NCBI GenBank assembly: GCA_021613535.1
Contig: CP075492.1
Coordinates: 18,290,001-18,354,000 of the forward strand
Direction: 5' to 3'
From: Adineta vaga
Taxonomy: Eukaryota; Animalia; Rotifera
Length of the DNA stretch: 64,000 nucleotides
Shown here: piece by piece, positions 3,667 to 59,124 of the stretch
Numbering within the stretch: the first letter of the stretch is position 1
How the letters are laid out: each line of letters begins with the position of its first letter
Translations under genes and position numbers: made by a program
The notes under the pieces: generated by a model
Told to the model about the DNA's origin: nothing
What the model saw: the letters and a program-made list of their open reading frames with translations, nothing else
Database searches by the model: none

Positions 3667-6605
3667 TAGGGTACTGCCAAATGGTCCCGGTCCCGGTTCC
3701 ACGGGACCGGGAACGGGACCAAAATTATACACTTTTAACGGGACCGAGACGAGACCGGGAGCGGACTAAAACTTGGTGATTGGTCCCGTAAATTTTTAGT
3801 GTTCAGTTGAATATAAATTTTAGTGTTTTTTATCAGCGATTTGTAGTTATCCGTCCATATAATCGAAAATCTTTTGTAGATTCAGATTGTAATAATGGAA
3901 AATTCTCAATATATACTAAAGAACATAAAAAAAATAATATAGATGAATTTAATTCGCTAACAATTCAACCATTCCTTTATCATCTGCCTCTATAAACAAC
4001 GAATAGATATATACCACTGATTCTTTTGTATATAGTAATGGCGAGTCGAGATAAATTTTGAATTAAAAAGTTTTTTTCAAGACATTGAATATGGTAACAT
4101 CAACTATTTATACTAAACAACAAATTCGGGATATGATGCAAAAAGAAAATTCACGTTTAGAGTTTCATAAACCAAAACATGTAAAAAGTCAGAAATGGAA
4201 CAATTATTTACAAGTTTTTATTGATGGTATTGGTCAACATTTTATTTCATGTACAAAATGCCATTGTATTCTTGCATGGAAATCAAACGATGGAACTAAT
4301 GTTATGGATAAACATGATAAAGCGTGTAAACAACATTTACCGTCAGCATCTACACAACAATCAATTAAATCATTTTATTCAACAAATACTAATGTTAATA
4401 AACAATTAATTAATTCAACAAAACGTAAAATTGCAGATTCATTAGCAGAATGTTGTGCAACAGATAATTTACCATTTGATATCGTTAAAGGTGTTGGATT
4501 TAAAGCATTTACTGGAAATTTATTAAAAATCAGTCGTCAATTAGGTTCATCTGTGTCAATCGATGAAATTCTTCCTGATTCAACAACGCTAAATTAAGAC
4601 TATCTCTCTGCTATAGATTCTTAGCATGATTATTGTGTTTGAAATTTTAGATCAGTCGACATGTTGATAATATATATAATTTTCGCAAAGAACAATTAAT
4701 TCAATATTTAGCAAAAATGAATAGCTATACAATTACAGTTGATTTTTGGACTGATTCAAAGACCAAAATACATTATGGTGGTATTACTATACATACATAT
4801 TCAGAAGAACATGGTCTTCTAGTTTTTGTTCTTGCATGTAAACCATATGATTTACCAAGTCAATCATCTGAAAATATACGAATATTTACAGATAAAATTC
4901 TTCAATCATATGGTTTGGTTTTAGGCAAAGTGAAATATGTTGTTAGTGACAACGAAAATAAAATGCGTTGTTCATTTAGAAGCAATATTATTCGTGTTGG
5001 ATGTTCAACACATTTTATTAACAAGATTATTGAACATTCTCTATGTAAAAAAGATATTGATTGTGATGTCATCCAACAGTTATTCAATGATATTCATGAT
5101 ATTGTTGTTTATTTAAGATCTTCTCATGTTCAATCAAAATTATCTAAAAAGCTACAGCTATTTTCTAAGACCCGTTGGAACAGTGCATATCATATGATAT
5201 CTAGTTTTGTTGATGTTTATCCGGAATTAAGTTATGTTATTACCGATCAAGATCGAAAAGCATGTCTTGGTGGAATTGATTTTGACGAAGTAGTATCACT
5301 TGCTAATTATCTCAAACATTTTGTCGATGCAACTGAATCATTAAGTGCCGAAAATAGTCCAACAATTCACTTAGTTTTACCATATAAACAACGTCTTTTA
5401 AATTTATCTAAAGCAAGTGAAAATGAATTTGAATCAATGAAAAAATTCAAGAAATATTTCCAAGATCAAATTGCAACATATTGGGAAGTTGATGATATTC
5501 ATTATTTAGCTGTTGTACTTCATCCTAACATGAAAAATTTACAAAAATATTCAAATAAAGATCGAAAAAAAGCTTATGATTTGTTAAAACGAGAAATTAA
5601 TCAACGACATTGTAAGTTATATTTATGTTTTAGCAACAATAAAAGGATTTTCATATAACATTATATAAATATGAATTTTTTTAATGTTTCAGCTCATCAA
5701 TCAACAGCTGCTGTTGATCCAGAGCCTCAACCACCACAACAAACATATTTAACAACAAATGATGTATTATCTGAATGTTTTGATCAACCTGGTGGAACTG
5801 GTACACAAACTAATGATGAATTTAAAAGATATTTACAATCAACCGATACATTAGTTGGTAATGAAGATTTATTAACATTTTGGACAAGACAGAAGAATTT
5901 ATATCCAACACTTTATTCAATAGCCTGTGAAATTCTCATTGTTCCAGCTAGCAATACTGCTGTTGAACGTTTATTCTCAGCGAGTGGTCAAGCAGTAACA
6001 AATGTACGAACCCGATTATCTGCTCAAAAATTAGATAAATTAATGTTTATCAAGAAAAATTTATTCATTTTGGATAAAATATTTGGTAAAACTCGAAAAT
6101 TAAATAGTAATGGTCTTTCTATTTGTTCAACGGATCAAAAGGGTGAAAAACGGTCACATGAAGGTTCATCAAGTGATGATGATAGTGAGATTTTTTATCT
6201 TACTGATGATGACGATAAAGATGAAAATTTATAAAGATAAATTAACAGTGTTATTTGATTTGGTATACATGTTTGTATTTGTTTTGTTATTTCTAATATG
6301 AACAATTTAGTATCTTTTTTTGTACTTATTTATATTTAAAAAGGGTTTTGAACATGCTTGAAAATAAAAAGTAAATTTGATGACTGGGCATCAGTACTGC
6401 GAAAAAAATCCCTGTCTTACTACTGTAGCCTTTGATTCTGAAAATATACCAATCTATAAATGGAAATTAGATTCATTATAAAAATTCACGGGACCGGGAC
6501 CGGGACCAGTAAAAGAATTTCAACGGGACCGGGACCGGGACCAACAACTTTTCTACCGGGACTATAGCGGGACGGGACTAAAAAAAGTGATTTTGCAGTA
6601 CCCTA
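3667..6605 (+). mobile_element. hAT-superfamily DNA transposon, full length
   Basis: 16-bp TIRs TAGGGTACTGCCAAAT / ATTTTGCAGTACCCTA (15/16 match), many subterminal CGGGACC repeats at both ends, internal transposase. No 8-bp TSD (TAGGCAAT vs ATGGCGGT). Confidence 0.95.
4091..6234 (+). CDS. hAT transposase, 3 exons (4091-4588, 4651-5611, 5693-6234); first donor reads CT not GT
   Basis: BED-finger-like CTKC...H, ITVDFWTD, VSDNENKM, CSTH, TRWNS, PASNTAVERLFS dimerisation motif; exon phases join in frame. Confidence 0.9.
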
Positions 6606-6657: not shown

Positions 6658-8565
6658 TCATAGAGCGCTTATATATTTCGCCAGACGTGTGATTGCTTCA
6701 TCGAATGGCTGATTACCGAATCTAACACGTAAACCGGTCAGATGGATGTCAAGCCATGGTTCAGCCTGATAGTTCTCATCGATGTACAATGCTATTATTG
6801 GAATTTTCAGTTTAGTGGCATAAGTGGCTTGAACACGACATGAATCACTTTTTGTACAATAATTCTCCGAAATAACCATTAGTACCATACTTGCATTTGG
6901 TATCGCTATCGCTATTTCTTCCCAACAATCGTCTGATAGACAATGTCCATCTTCATCGATCCATACCGAAATCAAATGTTGTTTGAGAGCAGCCACAACC
7001 GATCGACAGAAAGTCACATCTCGATGTGAATACGAGATCATTGGAGATTTCAACTGGGATACTTTAGCTACTTGATCGACGTTCAAAGTCGGTGCTTTGA
7101 ACTTATCGAGATACACAAGTATTCCATCAGCAGCCGCTTTGACAGTCATTAAATTATTTCTTAAGGATAGCGGAATGAATGCTTCGGTATTCGCGGTCGA
7201 CTCATTGGAAGCTTGTGTAACAGCTGCAAGAAATACTTCGTTTTCGTTCAATTTCGACTGAACAGTAGGACGAAATGCAAGACTACACATTATGTTATAA
7301 AGTGCTAATCGAATGAGATGCTTGACAAATAGATCGTTGGGTTCGACAACATTATGCTCGAGGAAAGATCTCATGAATAATGAGAGACCGCCGAGCTCAC
7401 AGCTGTCTAATATATACTTCGCTATATTATCATTGACAAGCATTTTAGCAAGAGATACCAAGTATTCGTAGAGATGACCTGTTGTGGAACGTAAATTGGC
7501 AAAAGTATTTGCTTCATGAATCTTCTGAAGTACGAAATCAATCGCAGGTTTGAGCAGGGCCGGAGTGTCGACTTCATTGATTGTAGCTACGTTTGCATAG
7601 ATTCGGGGATAAAATGAATACGTAAATGGAGAACGTTTCAATGTTTCGGACAAAACTGTTTCAGATTTGCGTAGTGTTTCAATGGCATTCGCGTTATTCA
7701 AGGCTATAATACCTTCTTCACACTGACTCACATTAGCAATAGTGATAATCAGCAGTTTAAGCGGGTCGGTGGCACTATTTCGTTGACAAATCGAATCTAA
7801 CCATTCGACGAGTTTGCTGGGAAAACCCAGTCGAACCATCATTGGTAGCATATTCTTGCTATCTGATACTGCGACGAGAGCTACGAAAGTGAGTTGAATG
7901 CATTCGATTCGTGCTCCGTGTATTGTTGTATTAGTAAAGAAGTGATCAATAAAGGTAATAATTTTCTGAATGGTCTGATCGTGTTGTATTTCATATAAGC
8001 ATTTATGAGTAGTGTATTCTGAGAATCTCATATTCTCCATTCGTCGACTATCCGACCATACGACAGCTCTGAGCAATAGGAGAAAAATTTTGATACATGT
8101 AACGAAAACCGTCTTATCATTCTCACCACCCAAATAGGCAAAGCTCTCATCAGTACTGAGACCGCTTATGGCCATCTGGTAGCATTCCGTTATTGATACA
8201 GATCCTCTTTCTAATGATACGGCAATCTTCTTAGAAACCATCTCCCAAAGTTCTGCCAAAATGGTTGAAAATATAGAGTAGTCAGGCAGCGAAGCTGAGA
8301 ACGCAATTAAAATGTTACAAAACCGAATGAATATGTTTGGTAGCCCAATTTCCGCTATGTATTGGTCTGATAGCAGCCGATATCGAATTGCGGGATTCTC
8401 CAGATGGTCTTTGACGGCTGAGAGTATACTGTGTATTTCAGTCGCATCAGACGGGTTCTCACGTAACTTTGTGCACAAATCGAGACGCTCGAGTAGTATC
8501 TTGAGTTTCTCTAGATCCATAATGTTCTCAGTATGAAGGGCGGTACTAGCCTGATGGTCCGACAT
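6658..8565 (-). CDS. Intronless protein: helical/ARM-like N-terminal region plus C-terminal TIR (TIR_2-type) domain
   Basis: MISYSHRD...VWID...WEEIAIAI...LMVISENY...SDSCRVQATYA...IPIIAL...PWL is a typical TIR_2 pattern. First ATG at 8565. The ARM call is inference from helical composition. Confidence 0.85.
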   Translation of the reverse strand: MSDHQASTALHTENIMDLEKLKILLERLDLCTKLRENPSDATEIHSILSAVKDHLENPAIRYRLLSDQYIAEIGLPNIFIRFCNILIAFSASLPDYSIFSTILAELWEMVSKKIAVSLERGSVSITECYQMAISGLSTDESFAYLGGENDKTVFVTCIKIFLLLLRAVVWSDSRRMENMRFSEYTTHKCLYEIQHDQTIQKIITFIDHFFTNTTIHGARIECIQLTFVALVAVSDSKNMLPMMVRLGFPSKLVEWLDSICQRNSATDPLKLLIITIANVSQCEEGIIALNNANAIETLRKSETVLSETLKRSPFTYSFYPRIYANVATINEVDTPALLKPAIDFVLQKIHEANTFANLRSTTGHLYEYLVSLAKMLVNDNIAKYILDSCELGGLSLFMRSFLEHNVVEPNDLFVKHLIRLALYNIMCSLAFRPTVQSKLNENEVFLAAVTQASNESTANTEAFIPLSLRNNLMTVKAAADGILVYLDKFKAPTLNVDQVAKVSQLKSPMISYSHRDVTFCRSVVAALKQHLISVWIDEDGHCLSDDCWEEIAIAIPNASMVLMVISENYCTKSDSCRVQATYATKLKIPIIALYIDENYQAEPWLDIHLTGLRVRFGNQPFDEAITRLAKYISAL

Positions 8566-8910: not shown

Positions 8911-9959
8911 GTTTAAAAAATAATAGGAGATCGAAATGGATGGATCTCATCGAATCGACTACGTTTTACTGTTGTTCCGTGGTTCTAAGAGCCATTTCCT
9001 TTTATTTCGTTTGGTTTATTGATCACATTGCTGGCGCTTTTTGAAAAAACGTCAAAATCTTCTACTTTAGCTTCGCATACATTTATATTACTGATGAAAC
9101 CCACGGTTCCAGTTATTGTAGTGAAGTTGATTCACAAATAATAATTGGTGCAGGGGTGCTCCGGGGGTGGACGGGGCTTACTCCTCGGAGATCCGTTTAG
9201 CCTCCGTGAATTAATCATCTCGAGCTGAATCCAGTGTATAGCGCCTTCCACCCACCGAAAAAGTCACGGATCAAAAACTGCATACAAAGGAATACAGACC
9301 GCCCTCTTAATAGATAGCTCAGAACAAATCAGCCTCAATTAATTTTCTGAATATCGCGTTCAATGTGTGGCCTATGTACTTCCACATTTGTTTAAAAGAT
9401 AGCTGAGTGAATCCATAGGAAACGTACCACTTTTTGGAAATAAGGTAACTTCACAATTTTGCACTGCTTTAACGGTTTTGATCATTCTGTCAGAAAGCAA
9501 CAATCCGAAAACGGTCGGTGGATAGAAAAGAAAACAAACTTTGTACGTAAAACGATGATGTCAAACTCATTCTTTCGAAACAGCTCTATTTTACCGCACA
9601 CTTTTCGAACTTTGACAGCTAATGTCAGTTCAGAATTTATAGGAAAAAGCTGAGTTGTACCGAAAGAATCAGTGTGATACCCACATCTTACGTACGAACT
9701 TTGGTACGCTTTCCACGGATTCACCCAGCTGAAGGAATTCTATATGAAACCTAATGGAAAGAGTTCTTCAAAAAATGACTATATGTGTCTTTCTTGATAT
9801 CAGGCTGTGGGTGTGGAAAAAGCTGAAATCATCATCTACCCACACCCACCCACACCCTCAAGATATGGAGCCAAAAGCTGTGAATTACTTCGAACCGTGT
9901 TCTCGTGAGTAGGGTACCTTTTTTCTAGAATTTACTGACATTTGCCTCTCGCTCCCACC

Positions 9960-12900
9960 ATGATCCGGAAAATTGAAAAAATTCAGAACATGGCTTTGTT
10001 TCAAGACTACGACGCATCTCAAGATCCTCCAGGGGAAGTTATTTTCCAGCCGTTGACACTAATCTACGGTAACAACGGTTCGGGAAAATCTACTCTAGCA
10101 GCCTTTTTCAAAACCCTACATCATACTACTTATATCCCTCTTTCTCTACCCGTACTTCATTATCCTCATGCTGATCAATACGCGAAGATCATTCTCGACA
10201 CTCCATCAGGTGACACGTCGTCTGAATATATTGCAAATGAATGGTCGCATCAGCCCAAAGAGGTGAAAGTATTCGATGAGGACTATTTAAATGGTAATAC
10301 GCTACTCTTTCAAGCCAATAAGGCGAAAAGCGGCTTTCACATGGACCCCAGGCATTCCAGCATAGCAGGTGAACGAAGTCGTTCGGGAATACATCTCATA
10401 CGGGCCACTCAAATTGCCACGTGGTGTTTCAATGTTCCAGAACCAAACGCAGTTGAAATTCGCCGTCTCATCGAGCGTCAACAGAGAATCCCTTATGACT
10501 TCTTCATACAATATCAGCAAAACACACAAAATATCGAAAACACGTTTTCCGCCTTGCTAGACAAACCGTTCGGTTTTGAGATCAACAATCCAATCGATAG
10601 ACAACACTGGATGACACTGGTAAACAATTCCACGCACGTTAATGAAGATGATTTGAAACAAGTACAAGACGCCTATGACCAGAATCATAACACGATCATA
10701 AGTGAGCGCAGTTTTCATTCTAAGAGGGATTGCACGAGGGGACAACCGACGCTGCTCAACGTCGTCTCTCGTAGTGGGCTGAGAATCACATGATTGATAG
10801 AAAGCTTACCTGATCTTCTGCACTCTTGCCGTTCTCTCAAACTCCTAATTTTTTATTTATGATAGTTTCCAGAAAGGAGGTGAAAACTAGAGAAAAAACG
10901 TATTTTTCTTGTCTTGTCATACTTTTGTTTCGGCTTCAACTGCGCCACGGAAGTAGCTAGAGACCTGAAATTGGGAGAGTGACTAGTTCATGCACAAATC
11001 TAGCCTTACTGCCAAAAATAGGCCTCCGTGACTCTTCCTGGCTGCGATAGGTACAACAGTCATTCTGAGACCGTGGAAAAAGTTGTGAAAAGTCCTCTAG
11101 GACAATCTGAAAATGCAGAGATTTTCGTGAGGTACGGTTGGCATCATTATGTTCGACGCTCGTTCATCTGTTAAACTGCATTATACGCATTTTGCGATAG
11201 CAACCAAAGTTATATGGAGCCGTTGAACCAAGATCCGCCAAAAGAACAGAATTTTCCTAACTGAATGTATTCTATCGTACACCATTCGACGCTGCACGCG
11301 AATATGGGATCCTCATCACGCAAAGATCTTTGCTGGAAAATGCTGGCACAGAAACATAAGGATGAATCAGGCGACAAATGTTAATGCACAAAGATGCGAA
11401 CCAGTAGTTTCCAGCAAAGATATTTTTGCGATATTAATCCCATATTCGTATGCAGCGTCGAATGGTGTACGATAGAATACATTTAGTCAGGAAAATTCTG
11501 TTCTTTTGGCGGATCTTGGTTCAACGGCTCTATATAACATGTTACCTCTTCTTTCTACCCCAAAATTCGTACATTATTGAAATGAAAATGGTGAAAGCTG
11601 AAGAAAAAATATTTCTTAAAACGGTTGAAGGGTTATACTGAGCATTGTTTGCCTCGTTGAAAAACTGCATCTAGCACAACTTACACTGCCCTAGACAAGA
11701 TCTATCTTCCCTGAAAGTTTCAGAAGTTTTCATTAAGCCACTCTGGAGGAAGTTCGGCAACAAGGGTCAGCAGGCTCAGAAACAACGATATTTTTGCGTT
11801 ATTTCCCCTAGCCAAGGTGACAGAAATCTGAAATTTCCGGGCGTTACCTATATGAGTTCGATTGATCTTATAACAAAAAAGTTATGAGGATCACAATGAC
11901 GACTGCTCAACGATTTAGTCAAAATTAGTACTTTTTTGGGTGATCCTCATATGTCCATCAAAATGTAATTGATTTCCAAACAATTATATACCATTCGATA
12001 GAGGAAAGATAGTCCTACAAAGTGATATTAGTACATCCATTCGTATCTCTCAATAACGTAATCTTTTTACATGCGAAATGAAGAAACCCTGATACAAGCG
12101 ATAATTTACTTTAGTGACACATGAAATTATGTTTCACGTTCAGAGCTCTTTTCGATTTTGCATCGTCTTGTTAAGTTCAAAATCAAATGAGATGTTGCAT
12201 TGTATGTGCTCCACATTGATCAGGCCAGGACATAATTTTGCAAATGTGACAAAATAATACAGGCTTATCAAGAATTTTCAAAAGCTATACCTTCGACCAT
12301 GTGTAACATATTTATGCTTTTTTTATAAACGATAATCAAAACAGAAAAGTGCTACCTAAAGCACATGGCGTGGGTGTGCGTGTAGAAGATACTCTCTTCT
12401 TCATCCACGCCCACACTCACACCTACCGTCACCCTAGACATCATAGTCTTCTCCGATCTAAAGATTGAATATCACAGTTTTGCACGTGAGCTATATAAGA
12501 CACACCAAGCAGCTGTAGTTACAACTTCTAATTTCCATTTAGGTAAAATCCAACAAATGTTTGAACGCGTCAATGTGTCACTCGGCTGTTATCGTCTAGT
12601 TATTAATAAATATCTAAGAGAATTTGCAACGGGTTTGCAGATAACTAGATTAGAGCTCAAGACGCAAGCAGTTATACGAAAGTATCGCAGGCGTGGATGG
12701 GACAGACTTAAATTTGATTTCAATGTGTACTCGCCCATAAAGCATTACTATGAGGGTGAATTTGTGCAGTGCTGCATCACCTTGAGAGGTCAACCCTTGA
12801 CGGATCTGTACCTGAGTGAAGCTGATAAACGAGCTTTTGCCATGTCTATTTTCTTCGCCAACTTGGTCGAGCAACAGAATGATCAGGAACAGATAGTCGT

Positions 12901-13745
12901 GATGGATGACCCAGTCACGTCACTAGATGCAAATCGAAAATCAAAGACTCTGCACTTCATCATCAACTTGTTCGAAAGACAATTAGTGAAACAAGTCATC
13001 GTGCTCTCCCATAACGCTGATGCTCTCCGTGACCTCTGGAAACTGGCACAGAAGAAGAAAATAGAGACATCAAAACTGCAGATAAATAAAAATCACACGA
13101 ATCACACATCTCTAGTCTCTGGTAAGGATTCTAAAACGTTTCGGCGGTAACTAGTCTCCTCAGTCCGATTTTAAAGATCTAAAAGGGTACGGCAGACCAT
13201 AGAAGAACATTCTTTTCAAAATTCAAAAGCCTATTGTTTATTAAGTGAGCTTAAAGATTGTACTTCTCTGTTTTAGCGACATGGACCTCGACAACATAAC
13301 GGGCTATCGCTATACGTCCGAACGCCAGTACCTCGAAGAATACTGCGAGCGTCCAAGTGAGCGCCTGCACGACAAGCGAGCAGTTTTCTTCAATATTCGA
13401 TACTGTCTGGAAAAAGCTCTGACCTACAATCCCTTTCTCAAGAGAGCAATGGAGGCTGAGCTGCAGAAACTGCACAACCCAATGTACGGCAGAGTAGTCG
13501 GAGTACTGGAAATCATTTTCAGGAATCATCCGGACTTTCAGACTAACAATCCGAGACTAGAAGCGAAGAAAGCTGAATTGATCACAGAACTTCGAGAGTT
13601 TGGAGCTGTCTCCGAATCCCTACATGCTCAGCCAGATGACCGAATCGACAACAAATCGTCAGCAGAACTAGTCCATCTGATCACGAGAGCATTTGAACTT
13701 ATTGACGATGCTTTTGGCCTTTCCTACTATTTCTTATCGGACTAG
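9960..13745 (+). CDS. RloC/AAA_13-like SMC-type ABC ATPase with C-terminal HEPN-like domain; exons 9960-10701, 12438-13146, 13277-13745 (639 aa)
   Basis: IYGNNGSGKST (Walker A), KVFDEDY, INKYL, LSEADK (signature), IVVMDDPVTSLD (Walker B/D-loop), VLSHN (H-loop), NIRYCLE...SESLH. GT-AG introns 10702-12437 (phase 1) and 13147-13276 (phase 2) give a 1920-nt open frame. Confidence 0.8.
11209..11538. repeat. Long inverted repeat (~140-bp arms, ~55-bp spacer), MITE-like, in intron 1 of the RloC-like gene
   Basis: GGAGCCGTTGAACCAAGATCCGCCAAAAGAACAGAATTTTCC... (11217) is mirrored by ...GGAAAATTCTGTTCTTTTGGCGGATCTTGGTTCAACGGCTC (to 11530). Confidence 0.9.
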
Positions 13746-14507
13746 GCATCAGAGTGAACGCTAGTTGGCAGCGACAGAGGATGAGTATTCATGCTCAATT
13801 TCTGTAATGAACTCAGTTATTCGAATATAGAAGAAACAGCGAGTATCACATAACTTTGCTCTTTTCTTTTAGAAAAGGATCAGCGAAACGATAGTTGAGC
13901 ATTATTGGCGAGTAGTAGATCATTCAAAGATGAGCAGAAAAAGAGTTTTTCAAAAGTGTCCTATATGGGGCATTAGACAGGTTTTTCGCCCAGTTCTTCT
14001 AAAAGCCTCAGTTTGAGTTCTAATATTCAAGGACAAGGTAAGAGAGTCATGCTTCGTTTGATCGTTTAGAAAGCATCGGAGCAGGTTGAAGTACGACAGT
14101 TATTGTTTCGACGAGCAAGACTTTCTACGGTTCTCAGTGCAAAGACAGAACACTTCGAAACCATATCTAGGAACTGTCTTTTCCGCTTACTTAATGACCA
14201 ATGATGTTCTAGACGCCGTTTTGAGCCTTATTCATGATTCTATTGACTGCCTGTGAGAATGTTGCAAAGAAGACGTACTATTTACCCAGACGATGTTTTA
14301 TTAGCGTTCAGCATCGTTCACCTTTAGTCGTCGTTGAATTACTGTTTGAGGGTGAGTGTGGGTGTGTTTAGAATAAATATTTTAAAGAATTCTATTTATT
14401 AATCTATAGGCTTTGTCCACAAAGATACACGTTTAAAATTCCGATAGGAATGTATCCACAAATACGCATTAATAAATACGAAAAATTTAGGGGTGTGAGT
14501 AATACCC

Positions 14508-14551
14508 GCCATGACCGGTTTCGACTGAATTTCACAGTCTCATCAGATAGC
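14508..14551 (-). ncRNA. Minimal type I hammerhead ribozyme (Penelope/Athena pLTR type)
   Basis: Minus strand GCUAU-CUGAUGA-GACUG(UGAAAUU)CAGUC-GAAA-CCG-GUC/AUGGC: full catalytic core, paired stems I and II, palindromic ACCGGU stem III. Confidence 0.9.
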
Positions 14552-14830
14552 TTACAGGTTGAACCTGATTACAAACCTCAATTAACTAAATTTATAAAAA
14601 TCTAGTCAATTAAAATTCCAATCGAATTCGATTGGCTTCTGGTTTAATCCTAAAATCACGGTAAATATTAGCAGAATTGTATAATTGAAATATTTTAAGT
14701 GTGTTATCTGAAATGAAAGAAGCGAATCATTGAATCTATGTCTTTTTAAGAATTGTAGACTCAAATGAAAGATTTTTTTGAAACAAAGAGAAAATTGATA
14801 TACGAAGAAATAGTTATATTGAAAGAATAT

Positions 14831-15413
14831 CTAAAGTGTGGTTGATAGTTTAGTTGTTGACTTCGGATTTTCGCTATCCATATAGACGATTCTATATTGG
14901 ATTTTTCGATGTTTGCATATCCAGTAGCAAGCAACTATAGTATGGCTTACGGTGCAGGCGAAAATAAGTAGAAGATAGCGTGGCTTAGAGAAAGAATTAA
15001 ATATGAGAAGAAAATGAATACTTTTTAGTTTTTCAATAATGATTTCATGAGGAACTTGTGAAAAGAGAAGCAAGCTAATTCTTACAAATTCATTTTATGA
15101 AGGTGAGAATAAATCTGTCGCTATCTTACCAGTCGAACTCTGTATCAAACAACTTGTCGTACAATGTTTTCCGACGCATTGGGTTCAATATATGGTGAAT
15201 CGTATGAAGGAAATTTGATTGAGTTGTTTCGCTTAGATCCAGACTTTGATCCCATTCGACTTTTGCAGGATCATATGTAGATGGGAATAAAAGCAATTTG
15301 TCGATTGATAGATCTGTTGCATCATTCATAAGAGCACGAGTTTCACAATGTCTAGTAAGATAAAATTGAGCATAAAGAGTTATTAGAATTTTTTTATGAC
15401 GGTGGAATTGCAT
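14831..15413 (-). CDS. Hypothetical 175-aa protein with C-terminal hydrophobic segment; 2 exons (15130-15413, 14831-15074)
   Basis: A 55-nt GTAAG...TTAG intron (15075-15129) joins two track ORFs in frame. Confidence 0.5.
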
Positions 15414-17368
15414 TTTTCTATTGGTAAATGACGAGATTGATCTAGAAAGCAGAAAGGAATTTCTATAGAAATGTTAAACAAAGAAGTTTCATTGAGTTTT
15501 ATTATGTGAAATAGTTCTATCGATTTTAAAGAAAATAGAATCAGATAGATATATAAGCGAATTAATTTGGAGAGAAATTGTTGAATTGTAAAAATGATCA
15601 AACAATTGTATATAAATCTACATATCTTGGCGGACCGATTGATAGCAAATTATCATATTTAGGAGTTGAATCTGTTATGTTATGATTATCAGTTGATATC
15701 GTCTAATAGAAAGAAATTTTGAATTATTGTAGTAGAAAAGTAGAAAAAAAATTAACTGACTGAATTATATTCCATGAATTCATTGTAGTTTTTATAGATT
15801 AAATTTTGATTGTAATTGTTTGCTAATGAACAAAATGTGATTGATTTCCAAGTTGTACATATGAATAACCATATAAGTATCAGAATTACTAGGAGTACAG
15901 CGAAGATTTTTAAATATTTGACTAAGTAGAGGAGAAATAAATGTTTATCAGATGTGGAGACATCTAAATCTTTGCATTGATTCACATCTCTAAATGTCAA
16001 TCTTTGTAGTAGATAACATAAATAATATTTTACTAAACAGAAAATCTTTATTTGTGTTTAATAATTCAAAAATAAATCATATATGGATACTCATTTTTAA
16101 CAATAATGCCATTGAGTGATATATAAAAAAGTAATTGATAAAGAAACGAATATTAAATATTGTATCAAACTTGATAATTAAATTGGATTCTGATAGTATA
16201 ATTTATTTCTAAAATATTTCAAAATCTAAGATACAAATGCTAATTAGCGAATATATAAATGAAGACAAACAAGTTATTTTTTTTAATTTTCTTATTATAA
16301 GATGATTTCTGATTTATTTTACAGTTTTGCTTATGAGTTTGAATGTTCATCTGATCATTTCACAGTAAAAGCTTCTTTAGACGTTTATGAATAAGTTCGT
16401 TTCTAGCATCTCGACGATTACGACTACCGACAATCATCTTAACTCCAGCTGCTGGTGTATTCCGAAAGACATTTTCATATACTCCATGCATACCTCGTTT
16501 AAATGTACGAAATCTTTTTCATGTTTGTAATGAATGAAGAATCGATCTTGGAACTGTTGGATATTTTCTTCTATTATATCTAATTGTAAAATCGCGTAGT
16601 TCTACGTTTATCGGCTTGCAGAAGCCGCCGGTGCTAGTCAAATTACTTATTTATTTTTAGTATTTGTTCTATCTGGATGTTTTTAGTGGAGGTAATATTC
16701 ATTTGTTGGGAGAACGAAAAAAGCACCTTTGGACAGAACACGTGTGCACAGTATTATCGATAAGGAGCAAAGGCAAACAACTCAGGTGAGTGCTGGTATA
16801 AACGAGTACGTATGATGAAATGCTTCGAACTTTTCTTACGCAGTTATGTAATATCAGCTTATAAACTGTGTAAGAAATCGAAGAAAAGCTTCAAAAGAAT
16901 TCAGCAGTGTAAAGACGCTGTAGAATTAAATAGCCGTCATTTAAGGGCATCCTACCAGTCTCTAATTTTCCTGCCCGCTAAAAGTGACCTTTTCAATGTG
17001 AGACTTGAGTGATCTCAGACGGGTGCTCCTTCTAGAAGTCAGCAGCTTTTTACTATCCAGATATATGCATCGTTTTTATTTCCCACAAAGGGAAAGACAG
17101 TTCTCCAAAAAAGAGTAGGATAGAACAAGTTTGTCACGAATTTCACTAACAAACTCTCAGCTCCGGAGGTCGTCGAGTCACAGTTAAGATAGCATGGTAG
17201 ATTCAGTGGTTATCATTTCAGAAACATCCAGTCATGTGCGGTCGAATTTGCGAAAACTGTGCTGTTATCTTTCATTTCTATAGGGAAACTGGACGAGGAG
17301 CGGTTTGCTACATTACTGTCAAAAATACATTGTATAACGCTAATCACGTTAATTAAAAGATACATCAA

Positions 17369-18589
17369 ATGCCCAAGAATATTCTTATATCAGGTGCCGG
17401 AATTGCTGGACCCACCGTTGCTTTCTGGCTTGTTCGTTATGGGATGAAGGTCACTGTTATCGAACGATCACCTCAATTACGCTCCGCAGGACAGACAATC
17501 GATATTCGTGGTACAGGTCTTGAAGTCGTACGGAAGATGGGCCTTGAAGACATTATTCGAGCAAGAAGCACTCAAGAAAAGGGTATCAACTTTGTAGATA
17601 GAGAGAATCGTACACAAGCCGCATTTCCTGTGGAGACAATGGATGGACAATCCTTCGTTGCTGAAATAGAGATAGTTCGAGGAGAACTTGCTACATTGCT
17701 TTATGAGCAGACCCGTAACGATGTTGAGTATATCTTTGGTGATAAAATAACTGCCATCGTAGATCGAGATGATCGAGTGCAAGCCAGTTTTTCAAAGGGA
17801 GCTGATCGTGAATTTGATCTGATCATAATTGCGGATGGATTAAATTCAAAAACTCGGGAACTCGTCTTCGAAAGTAGTACATCACCTATTCATCGTCTTG
17901 GTCAATATACATCCTACTTCTCGATCCCGTACGAAGAATCAGATGGCACTTGGTCACGTTGGTACAATGCACCTGGAGGTAGATGTATTTTGCTACGACC
18001 CGATGGTCAAGAAACCAACACAACTCGTGCATTTCTAACGCTCAGTAGTTCTCCAAATGGATTAGAAAAACTCGACATAAACAGTCAGAAAGCAGAGATG
18101 CACAAGTTGTTTGCAGATGCTGGTTGGGAAACACCTCGTGTATTATCTTCTATGGAGAATTCTAGCGATTTTTATTTACAAGAAGTCGCCCAAGTCAAAA
18201 TGGATGTGTGGTCAAAGGGTCGAGTCGCTCTATTAGGAGATGCTGGTTACTGTCCGTCACCAATTAGTGGTATGGGAACGAGTGTTGCAATTGTTGGAGC
18301 ATACATTCTTGCAGCAGAGATTGCTCACCATGAGGATCACAAAAACGCATTTGCTTCGTATGAAACTCTTCTTCGCCCATACATTACAAAGGCACAGAGC
18401 TTGCCTCCTGGCGCGCCGCATTTTGCAACTCCGCAGACTGAGTGGGGAATTTGGATACTTCATAAAGTGCTAAGTGTTGCAAGTTTTGGTATAAGAGTAG
18501 GAGCGGCACGCTTCTTTAGAAAGTTTTTGTCGCCTCCTGCCGAGTCTATCGAACTTCCAACCTATGACACACAGATTATTCGACAATAA
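17369..18589 (+). CDS. FAD-dependent monooxygenase (FAD_binding_3 type), intronless, fungal/bacterial-like
   Basis: ISGAGIAG, IIADGLNS and RVALLGDAGYCPSPISGMGTS fingerprints; 406 aa. Confidence 0.92.
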   Translation: MPKNILISGAGIAGPTVAFWLVRYGMKVTVIERSPQLRSAGQTIDIRGTGLEVVRKMGLEDIIRARSTQEKGINFVDRENRTQAAFPVETMDGQSFVAEIEIVRGELATLLYEQTRNDVEYIFGDKITAIVDRDDRVQASFSKGADREFDLIIIADGLNSKTRELVFESSTSPIHRLGQYTSYFSIPYEESDGTWSRWYNAPGGRCILLRPDGQETNTTRAFLTLSSSPNGLEKLDINSQKAEMHKLFADAGWETPRVLSSMENSSDFYLQEVAQVKMDVWSKGRVALLGDAGYCPSPISGMGTSVAIVGAYILAAEIAHHEDHKNAFASYETLLRPYITKAQSLPPGAPHFATPQTEWGIWILHKVLSVASFGIRVGAARFFRKFLSPPAESIELPTYDTQIIRQ

Positions 18590-33681: not shown

Positions 33682-34050
33682 GTGTGGGTGAGGTTGTGGA
33701 AGATTGTATCATTTAACGTTGTAAATCCACACCCTAAAACAAGTGAAAAATAATTGAAAAAAAGTGCCACAGATTCGGAATAAATCCGAAATGTATGGTG
33801 ACTTTGTCCCCAGATTATATTGATTATATTTTGCTATCACTACGAGTCTCAGAAAAAAATAATTATTTACGCAGTTTATAGAGTTCTTGATCAAGTTTGT
33901 TTTTAGGCAACAGATAAAATTACGTATATTTGCGCACTTATATTTTTCGCTGTTGAAATCAATACCTTATTTATGATTGATTTTTTTCTCATGTTCTCAT
34001 CACAACTTCGTATCTTTATATTAACGACTGCAGAAGCGCCTATATATATA
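33682..34050 (+). repeat. Duplicate of the upstream region of the 40164 gene (matches 39568-39620 plus 39807-40119)
   Basis: Near-identical by direct comparison, with ~186 bp missing; ends at the TATA-like run with no CDS after it. Confidence 0.9.
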
Positions 34051-34804
34051 TACACGTATATACAATATCATCATTATTTTCAAGTGTAGATTGTTCAACA
34101 ATATTTTTTCTTCTTTGTGTTTTCATCATTCTTGAGGGTGTGGGTGGGGTGTGGTTAATACACTTCCCTTCACCCACACCCACACCCACACATTCAGAGC
34201 AAGATCCGCAAAAAATACCGGAAAAGGACTTGGCTGTTTAAGAGGTGTGCTCAGTAAAAGTCAATTTTCTCAGCGAAGAAAAACAATTTCAAAAATTTGG
34301 ATGTATACTTTTGAAGAGGGGCATCCGGCAAATCGAACCACGTCAAAATATTGCTTTTAGATGCTTAAGAAAAAGTGGTGTTAGGTTTGCCAGATCGGTT
34401 CGGGTTTTTTAGTCGTGCCTGTTTCGGGTCCTTTGAAAAACCCAGTTCTCATTCTGGTACTTTCAAACTTAGTTTTTCAGATTTAGTTTTCAATTCTGAA
34501 TCTGAAAAACTTGGTTTCGAGATGCGAAACTCAAAAGGAAACAGACTAGCGCCATTTGTTTGAAAACTTGATTTTGTCACTTTTTAGAGTAGTCCGAAGT
34601 TTTTGGATTTTTTCGATCGAAAAAAAGTTTTCAAAAAACGTAAAAGACACATATTCGTGATCAGCGTCAAATTCTCTATCGGATAGGCTAAAAAACGGCA
34701 AATATGTTTATTCGCTACATTTTTGCTTTATGTGCATCTTACTTTGATCTTTATCTTTGCTTCTATTTTCTGTTATTATCAATGAAAACACGTGCGTGCG
34801 ATGG

Positions 34805-39133: not shown

Positions 39134-40163
39134 CTTCTTATTTCCATTATAAACTCTTCGGTTTTTTTCTTCTAATTTTTTTAAAACTAATAAAACAAAA
39201 TTGATTTCATATTTGAAATTTTAGATATCTTGAGATGGGTGAGAGATTGTCGATATTCAGAGATAATAATATTCTATATATTTTTAAATACTTCATTTAA
39301 TGATGAATTATTGAACCGTTTTATTACATATGTCCAAAAATTGGTTCTTGATGTATACAGTCATTATCTGAAACAAAGATATTATCCGATCAATAAGTCA
39401 ATACAATTGACTTGATATATACAATAATAGTGTAAAGGAATGTATAAATACGTAGGTTATCTTAGAGTAGGATTCGAGTTTTTCTTGAATGGATTCGCCT
39501 GATGATCGGACCAAATGGGACCAACATCGGACCAAGATGCAGTTCGACGAGCTGAGGGTGGGTGTGGGTGTGGGTGAGGGTGTGGAAGATTGTATCCTTT
39601 AACGTTGTAAATCCACACCCACACCCTCAAATGCATTACTACATGAGATCGACAATAATAAACAAATTAGGTGAAAATACTGATTTAATATATAGCAACA
39701 TCGCCCGTAGTTGACAGGAAGAAACAATTAAAGTGCAATTTTCAGAGGAAAACAATAGGAGAAAATACTAAATCTCTAAGAACTCGTGCGCAACTTTTTA
39801 GAATACTAAAACAAGTGAAAAATAATTGAAAAAAAGTGCCACAGATTCGGAATAAATCCGAAACGTATGGTGACTTTGTCCCCAGATTATATTGATTATA
39901 TTTTGCTATCACTACCGAGTCTCAGAAAAAAATAATTATTTACGGAGTTTATAGAGTTCTTGATCAAGTTTGTTTTTAGGCAACAGATAAAATTACGTAT
40001 ATTTGCGCACTTATATTTTTCGCTGTTGAAATCAATACCTTATTTATGATTGATTTTTTTCTCATGTTCTCATCACAACTTCGTATCTTTATATTAACGA
40101 CTGCAGAAGCGCCTATATACATATATAAGGTTCGACTCAAGAGTTATACAAAACACTTCTACG

Positions 40164-57880: not shown

Positions 57881-58526
57881 TTACATCGTCAGTGCTTTAG
57901 ATTGTTCGATCGTCAGTTCATTAGGTCGTTACATCGTCAGTTCGTTAGATAGTTGAATCGTTAGGTCGTTCGATCGTCAGTTCATTAGATAGTTGAATCG
58001 TTAGGTCGTTCGATCGTCAGTTCGTTAGGTCGTTCGATCGTCAGTTCATTAGATCGTTAGATCGTGGGATCGTCAGTTCGTTAGGTCGTTCGATCGTCAG
58101 TTCATTAGATCGTTAGATCGTGGGATCGTCAGTTCGTTAGATCGTTACATCGTCAGTTCGTTAGATCGCTACATCGTTAGATCGTCAGTTCGTTAGATCG
58201 CTACATCGTTAGATCGTTACATCGTCAGTTCGTTAGATCGTGGGATCGTTAGATCGTGGGATCGTTAGATCGTGGGATCGTGGGATCGTTAGATCGTGGG
58301 ATCGTTAGATCGTTGGATCGTTAGATCGTCAGCTCGTTAGATCGTTAGATCGTCAGCTCGTTGGATCGTCAGCTCGTTAGATCGTTACATCGTTAGATCG
58401 TCAGCTCGTGAGATCGTCAGCTCGTGAGATCGTTACATCGTTAGATCGTCAGCTCGTGAGATCGTCAGCTCGTGAGATCGTCAGCTCGTGAGATCGTTAC
58501 ATCGTTAGATGGTTGGATCGTTTGAT
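57881..58526. repeat. 8-bp-unit variant satellite (ATCGTTAG/ATCGTCAG/ATCGTGGG/CTCGTGAG etc.), about 80 units
   Basis: Clear 8-nt periodicity read directly from the sequence. Confidence 0.92.
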
Positions 58527-58704
58527 CATCACCTGGTTACCTTCTTAACTATATATCCTGGATCCGTTCAGCTCGATCGCTACCCGCTAGTTAATGCGAA
58601 GGCCCCTACCGCTGTTGGCATAAACACCGTAGCGGAAACGTGTACACATGGAAGAATTCAGCGCCGAACAGCGATCGCGTTCACGCATCACCCGCACTGT
58701 TACC

Positions 58705-59124
58705 AACATCCTTATTCACACCCTCCGTTACATCCACACACTTACCTAAACCTACATCCTTATTCAGACACTCAGTTACACCCACACCCTCACCTAAACC
58801 TACATCCTTATTCACACCCTCACCTAAACCCATATCCTTATTCACACCCTCAGCTACACCCACACCCTCACCTAAACCCATATCCTTATTCACACCCTCA
58901 GCTACACCCACACCCTCACCTTAACCCATATCCTTATTCACACCCTCAGCTACACCCACACCCTCACCTAAACCTACATCTTTATTCACACACTCAGTTA
59001 CACCCACACCCTCACCTAAACCCATATCCTTATTCACACCCTCAGCTACACCCACACCCTCACCTTAACCCATATCCTTATTCACACCCTCAGTTACAGT
59101 CTCACCGTTATCCACACCCTCAGG
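58705..59124. repeat. Telomere-like hexamer array (CACCCA/CACCCT variants) with 48-bp higher-order unit
   Basis: CACCCACACCCTCACCTAAACCCATATCCTTATTCACACCCTCAGCTA repeated in tandem. Confidence 0.9.

Follow-up and report, generated by a model that had tools for sequence, protein, structure and literature searches.

When a hammerhead ribozyme motif with a telomere-complementary tail lies inside a chromosome of Adineta vaga, a bdelloid rotifer, does it mark a former chromosome end, or an internal break that was repaired? We consider this question for one locus within a 64,000-nt stretch of A. vaga DNA, called the window here and numbered from its first letter. A preliminary description of the same DNA had offered both answers, a fossil chromosome end or a healed break.

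The hammerhead motif and its tail

A minimal type I hammerhead motif occupies 14508..14551 on the minus strand. Its stem I pairs 14551-14547 with 14512-14508 (5 bp, including one G-U), the core CUGAUGA spans 14546-14540, stem II pairs 14539-14535 with 14527-14523 (5 bp, with a loop of 7 nt), and GAAA lies at 14522-14519. Helix III consists of 2 bp and a 2-nt loop set in a palindrome, and the GUC at 14515-14513 places the predicted cut between 14513 and 14512. Sequence and descriptor scan locate the minus-strand motif, its cut site and the 7-nt gap to the tail where the preliminary description had put them. The descriptor scan found this single hammerhead in the window, compared to one match in total across 150 simulated 64-kb windows. 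The Rfam Hammerhead_3 model (RF00008) scores the motif at 26.1 bits (E 0.014), short of the gathering score of 48.5, and an Rfam scan of the whole window returned no matches at the gathering threshold. The fold stability of the 116-nt hammerhead region is unexceptional (z -0.67). In an alignment of 18 hand-chosen hammerhead sequences of the same length, 88% of the cells are paired, compared to at most 46% in slid controls; both-sided changes occur in 4 of 12 pairs, and those in stems I and II are compensatory. Because the search pattern fixed some columns and the sequences are related, we treat this covariation as supportive only. The hammerhead is confirmed as a real, conserved motif. At 14549, the G-U pair of stem I is replaced by G-C in nearly all other aligned contigs, and pairing is intact both ways.

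The 2-bp helix III leads to a prediction of weak cleavage by the monomer. In folding calculations, the monomer adopts an inactive structure at -14.6 kcal/mol, versus -8.8 kcal/mol when only stems I and II form, while a dimer that pairs through the palindrome is predicted at -35.6 kcal/mol, versus 2 x -14.6 kcal/mol. A modeled preference for the dimer over an inactive monomer is in line with the sections of PMC4209133 that report minimal hammerheads with a small palindromic helix III for rotifers. The Penelope-like type I hammerheads described there have the same short stem I, the same 2-bp palindromic helix III and the same predicted need for a dimer; the present motif differs in its 5-bp stem II and in having no partner hammerhead in the window. 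At related loci described below, two or three hammerheads follow one another in tandem, at spacings from a few dozen up to about 300 nt (L022:49-140, L015:4001-4404, L007, L019 and L073), and these could form active dimers in cis.

Beyond stem I, a 7-nt spacer and the C-rich tail ACTCACACCC together occupy 14491..14507 on the minus strand. The tail itself spans 14500-14491 and holds one telomere-complementary unit, ACACCC, 16 nt after the cut; it is able to fold back onto the GGGU directly after stem I. Position 14491 is the element's 3' terminus, as judged from sequence and from contig break-offs: in public runs, other copies end at this same base, with the loose ends of 5 contigs in each of two DNA runs. 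The flanks beyond 14491 differ between contigs (agreement 0.59), and the majority ends in GGTGGGTGT. Further loose contig ends, at 14504 (3-4 contigs) and 14508 (3 contigs), likewise run into G-rich repeats, other copies carry additional G-rich units past the 3' end, and a G-rich break-off is also present in one contig of a second organism.

Extent and family of the element

The element extends from 14491 to about 16570 (about 2.08 kb), with its sense on the minus strand, and is a 5'-truncated, dead copy. We aligned contigs of four public runs to 13900-17200 and took depth figures from the two DNA runs. Summed contig depth is 185 and 25 in the left flank and 187 and 27 in the right flank; it rises to about 15-16 times the flanks at 14549, stays at about 2-8 times the flanks onward to about 16560, and is at single-copy level left of about 14340 and right of about 16570. 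These figures show the element to be multicopy, though a summed contig depth is not a copy number. The preliminary description had made its reading depend on related copies elsewhere, and a multicopy family is indeed present. Other family copies contain internal deletions. A contig near-identical to the 14491-~16570 copy has the depth of the flanks, several other copies having about half, which hints weakly at an insertion on both homologues; no contig joint that skips the element, as an empty allele would, was found in the four runs. One contig in each DNA run spans the left junction, so the junction is not an assembly artefact. A search for target-site duplications at the element's edges gave a longest match of 5 nt, composed of A/T. 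GC content is 40.5% left of the element, 28.8% within it and 40.1% to its right. Immediately left of the junction, 14366-14490 has a mean depth of 279 versus 185, and a second copy of this segment was found neither in the window nor in 74 related loci; in one run presumed to be RNA (one study), the end of a contig at 14387 falls close to an AATAAA (14372). A listing of 24 runs includes no RNA holder of the sequence, which does not bear on its expression.

At its truncated end, the element retains about 70 codons from the C-terminus of a Penelope-like reverse transcriptase (RT) without an endonuclease, at 16360..16575 on the minus strand, as identified by tblastx and tblastn matches to RT-bearing loci and by the C-termini of bdelloid RTs. 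The fragment has one frameshift, near 16510-16518, and lies 1.8 kb (1807 nt) upstream of the hammerhead in the same orientation. Over a 52-residue piece, its identity to 11 of 12 Rotaria and Adineta proteins is 46-65%. Eleven of the 12 longer relatives, several of them marked partial, stop 0-30 residues past the matched stretch, which leaves no room for an endonuclease, and a GIY-YIG domain after the RT is absent in 12/12, both by our own pattern and by the listed families. Our own pattern finds the RT catalytic motif in 11 of the 12, and an RT-related family or name is on record in the database for 11; a Pfam scan of four bdelloid relatives gave no RT match. RT homology extends to 16571-16577 in four relatives and weakly to 16601 in one, a unique contig begins at 16541, and the 5' truncation accordingly lies near 16570. 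There is no GGGTGT or GGGTGA telomeric cap in 16531-16640, and CACCC is likewise missing within 200 nt of the start of RT homology.

Between the RT fragment and the hammerhead lies an AT-rich 3' region of 1.8 kb (14552..16359, minus strand), which the raised summed depth marks as multicopy. Protein searches gave no credible homologue or product for it. Stop counts favour the minus strand, and the minus-strand open reading frame at 15126-15473 has Atlas scores all under 0.9. A decayed antisense reading frame (14738-16305, plus strand), suspected from its translation, gained no support: it had no match among 290 candidates, and its one phmmer match (a repetitive S-layer protein, E 4.8e-6) was spurious by BLASTP.

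Because the hammerhead and tail, a co-oriented endonuclease-less RT end, a shared 3' end and multicopy relatives occur together, we assign the element to the Athena/Terminon type, a label that rests on architecture. Athena and Terminon (Gladyshev & Arkhipova 2007; Arkhipova et al. 2017) are endonuclease-deficient Penelope-like elements of bdelloids, as treated in parts of PMC6431247, 10.1101/2021.04.23.441226, PMC5537684 and PMC3846280. Athena tails are described in such accounts as reverse-complement telomeric repeats, (ACACCC)n or (TCACCC)n, downstream of the hammerhead, and among hammerhead elements the C-rich tail is, according to passages of PMC6431247, confined to telomere-associated ones. 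Like these elements, the present copy has a 3' hammerhead followed by an ACACCC-type tail, a co-oriented endonuclease-less RT with bdelloid relatives and a 5' truncation, and so appears to be a 5'-truncated copy of a published kind. The earlier placement of an Athena/Terminon end here, in the orientation of priming, agrees with the end shared by related copies and with the RT end upstream.

The copy departs from the described elements in several respects. A Terminon giant unit is outlined as having multiple open reading frames, reaching up to 40 kb and forming head-to-tail chains; the copy here is 2 kb long, single in the window and a lone internal fragment, without a chain, an accessory open reading frame or a telomeric cap at its 5' truncation. 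Most Athena copies are described, in the portions of the literature at hand, as 5'-truncated by short telomeric stretches, and such a cap, typical of Athena but not obligatory, is absent at this truncation; the 3' junction holds one repeat unit only. The endonuclease-containing Penelope of A. vaga (PMC3846280, in part) and the retrozymes also have a hammerhead in a terminal repeat and insert internally. However, the former carries a GIY-YIG domain and is often flanked by target-site duplications, neither of which was found here (the domain was sought at the C-terminus), and retrozymes carry tandem hammerheads without an RT.

An internal break or a former chromosome end

The healed break proposed in the preliminary description fits best. 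At a probability of roughly 0.55, we favour the insertion of a now-dead copy at a double-strand break in the interior of a bdelloid chromosome. The single repeat unit, the missing cap, the lack of any target-site duplication longer than 5 nt and the gene-bearing flanks of 40% GC all favour an internal event. In the model set out in passages of PMC6431247, the tail pairs with a G-rich 3' end and primes reverse transcription, and such priming is placed at telomeres or double-strand breaks in those of PMC3846280. The element's orientation matches this model, with the plus strand extended rightward. An active copy elsewhere would have supplied an RNA in which hammerhead and tail were still joined. 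The cut site is upstream of the tail, and cleavage would therefore free a 22-nt piece bearing the tail; since the two are joined in this copy, the template would have been uncut, or its pieces held together by stem I. The tail would then have annealed to a few G-rich bases on the broken left-hand end, which were pre-existing or had just been added by telomerase, and an RT acting in trans may have extended the plus strand by about 2.1 kb, stopping in the 3' end of the RT gene. Finally, the extended end would have been joined to the right-hand DNA without a telomeric cap, and the copy would have decayed afterwards.

The nearest described counterparts are Athena fragments at deletion breakpoints in A. 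vaga (PMC13564844). In the parts of that study concerned, Athena fragments with telomeric repeats are interpreted as neotelomere scars from break-induced homologous extension repair. As here, Athena sequence occupies an internal position; those ends, however, are fresh, transient and from experimental lines, whereas the present copy is old, decayed and flanked by host DNA. Our literature search found no survey of internal Athena junctions, which does not imply its absence from print. The locus adds one further dead copy of a described element, a largely ordinary find.

Several points count against the internal break. In the four runs, no contig joint links the two flanks directly, as an empty allele would. 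The neighbours in the window include foreign-like genes and NHL repeats as well as a hAT transposon and short stretches of telomeric type, features that parts of PMC2861651 describe for the subtelomeres of bdelloids. A cap could also have been lost by later deletion. In addition, 13 of 52 related hammerheads are tail-less.

Less probable is a history in which a true or lasting chromosome end lay at 14490, the element attached to it, and the right-hand DNA was added later by further capture, break-induced replication or fusion, as has been proposed for Terminon chains that turn into internal islands. The orientation suits this history, as the plus strand is G-rich and the element extends to the right; foreign-like genes flank both sides, and passages of PMC6431247 describe internalized islands and host genes captured between units. 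However, the junction holds a single repeat unit, neither a cap nor a next unit is present at about 16570, and a second hammerhead or RT was not found in the 64 kb. Rather than a proximal telomeric array at a terminal position, we found one unit with 47 kb of ordinary genes distal to it, to the right of the element within the window. The preliminary description had also taken the element to cap the right edge of a gene island that was once a free end. Equal GC and bacterial-like genes on both sides instead put the element inside the island: the 40.1% GC continues rightward together with a bacterial-like FAD monooxygenase gene, and the truncation carries no cap.

A second G-rich cluster 125 nt to the left of the junction (14346..14365, plus strand) could be counted in favour of a former end, and the preliminary description had cited these repeats. 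They are present, but they belong to a window-wide motif. Clusters of at least two GGGTGT/GGGTGA hexamers occur 17 times in the window, in both directions, compared to 0 in 100 simulations; 11 of the 17, this one included, lie outside a tandem array at 58.7-59.1 kb, and the cluster resembles those at 9835-9861 and 39553-39572. It is therefore probably host background, outside the element. TGTGGG, given as the bdelloid repeat in part of PMC7943196, likewise has abundant related motifs in the window; together with the gene content and the Rotaria and Adineta origin of all 12 longer RT relatives, this abundance suggests a bdelloid host. Telomere-like clusters on both strands (for example 9835-9866, 25122, 33682-33734, 34136-34191, 39560-39626, 41449, 43533 and 57030) often form the ends of small hairpin elements, and may represent MITE ends, sites bound by proteins or very small scars of repair. 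The motif CACCCTCAAG is seen 5 times in the window versus 0.03 expected. We discarded a preference of junctions for CACCCTCAAG motifs that were already in place: of 18 informative junctions, 11 fall on the motif (p about 1e-4, with L002 excluded and with unmasked decayed tails included in the background), but such bases are inseparable from those encoded by the tail or added by telomerase.

It is improbable that the fragment was inserted elsewhere first and then carried here passively, whether in a segmental duplication or through ectopic repair or template switching. Microhomology deletions often reshape bdelloid elements, according to sections of PMC2861651, and internal deletions are seen in other copies; yet the left junction coincides exactly with the family's 3' terminus, and contig depth marks each flank as single-copy, neither being found a second time. 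Least probable is ordinary target-primed insertion in which an endonuclease acting in trans (a GIY-YIG or Rep protein of a Terminon, or a Penelope enzyme) made the nick and the G-rich match served for pairing only. GIY-YIG reading frames in some Terminons (PMC6431247, in part) and plentiful GGGTG motifs as potential targets are set against the absent target-site duplication and, in the relevant part of PMC3846280, the lack of observed Athena cross-mobilization by the Penelope endonuclease in A. vaga.

Related loci and neighbouring genes

Using the hammerhead alone as the search pattern, with no tail required, we found 74 metagenome loci and no matches in viral contigs. CACCC lies within 45 nt of the cut in 39 of 52 distinct sites, mostly at an offset of 15-17 nt (17 in the window), compared to 5/52 upstream and 0/52 on the opposite strand; the 52 sites retain L002, which has 52% GC, lacks stem I and is probably unrelated. 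The number of CACCC units per site is none in 13, one in 14, two in 20 and three or four in 5. Tail-less loci include L013, L017, L022, L028, L030 and L031. Among the 42 loci whose upstream sequence reaches 1.5 kb or more, which were not de-duplicated, 17 have RT homology upstream on the same strand, at 245-1750 nt from the hammerhead (1807 nt in the window), and antisense RT homology was not found at related loci; L019 and L058 were left out of the count of 19 related loci, their RT looking LINE-type by sequence reading. The RT at a related locus matches RVT_1 at E 2e-6, just short of the cut-off, and clusters with rotifer RTs. A head-to-tail chain occurs at one site, present in three loci. 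Of seven apparent 5' truncations, whose positions are approximate, one has CACCC within 200 nt. Host-type Pfam families appear in 14 of 24 hand-picked downstream reading frames from the 74 loci. True telomeric arrays are prone to drop out of assemblies made from short reads, and all these counts consequently lean toward internal copies.

The same counts bear on a broader, tentative proposal, which we consider possible but doubtful: that most bdelloid Athena insertions, instead of capping telomeres, are permanent patches at internal double-strand breaks, primed on 1-2 units, left uncapped and rejoined beside host genes. At most two CACCC units are present at 47 of the 52 related junctions, a nearby repeat is missing at 6 of the 7 apparent truncations, and the 14 of 24 downstream reading frames of host type point the same way. 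If the proposal is true, hammerhead-tail junctions such as 14491 would be a readable map of past breaks, where foreign genes entered. If empty alleles show that breaks were filled, these junctions would also provide a countable record of repair by a telomerase-related retroelement, and the same record would test whether islands of foreign genes arise at such breaks. In bdelloids, finding a hammerhead joined to a telomere-type tail does not by itself amount to evidence of a former chromosome end.

To the left of the element, a split AAA_13-family ATPase gene (9960-13745, plus strand), likely foreign in an animal, has its N-terminal P-loop part at 9960-10793 and its C-terminal part at 12386-13150, separated by 1.6 kb that include a 138-bp inverted repeat at 11209-11538; its best PADLOC match, at E 1.7e-22, is to PDC-S06, a candidate for bacterial defence, with PrrC weaker. 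To its right, 17369-18589 (plus strand) is an intact FAD monooxygenase reading frame, likely foreign as well, whose nearest models are bacterial PRK07588/PRK05868 and tetracycline-destructase-like ones, all below their cut-offs; a FAD_binding_3 gene also adjoins the related hammerhead of L026. A 635-aa single-reading-frame protein with a C-terminal TIR_2 domain (6658-8565, minus strand) stands where the 40%-GC block begins on its left side, beside a hAT transposon (about 3697-6544). Toward the far end of the window, a tandem array with a 16-nt unit based on 8 nt (57881-58527) adjoins the array at 58702-59098, whose 48-nt units are partly telomere-like.
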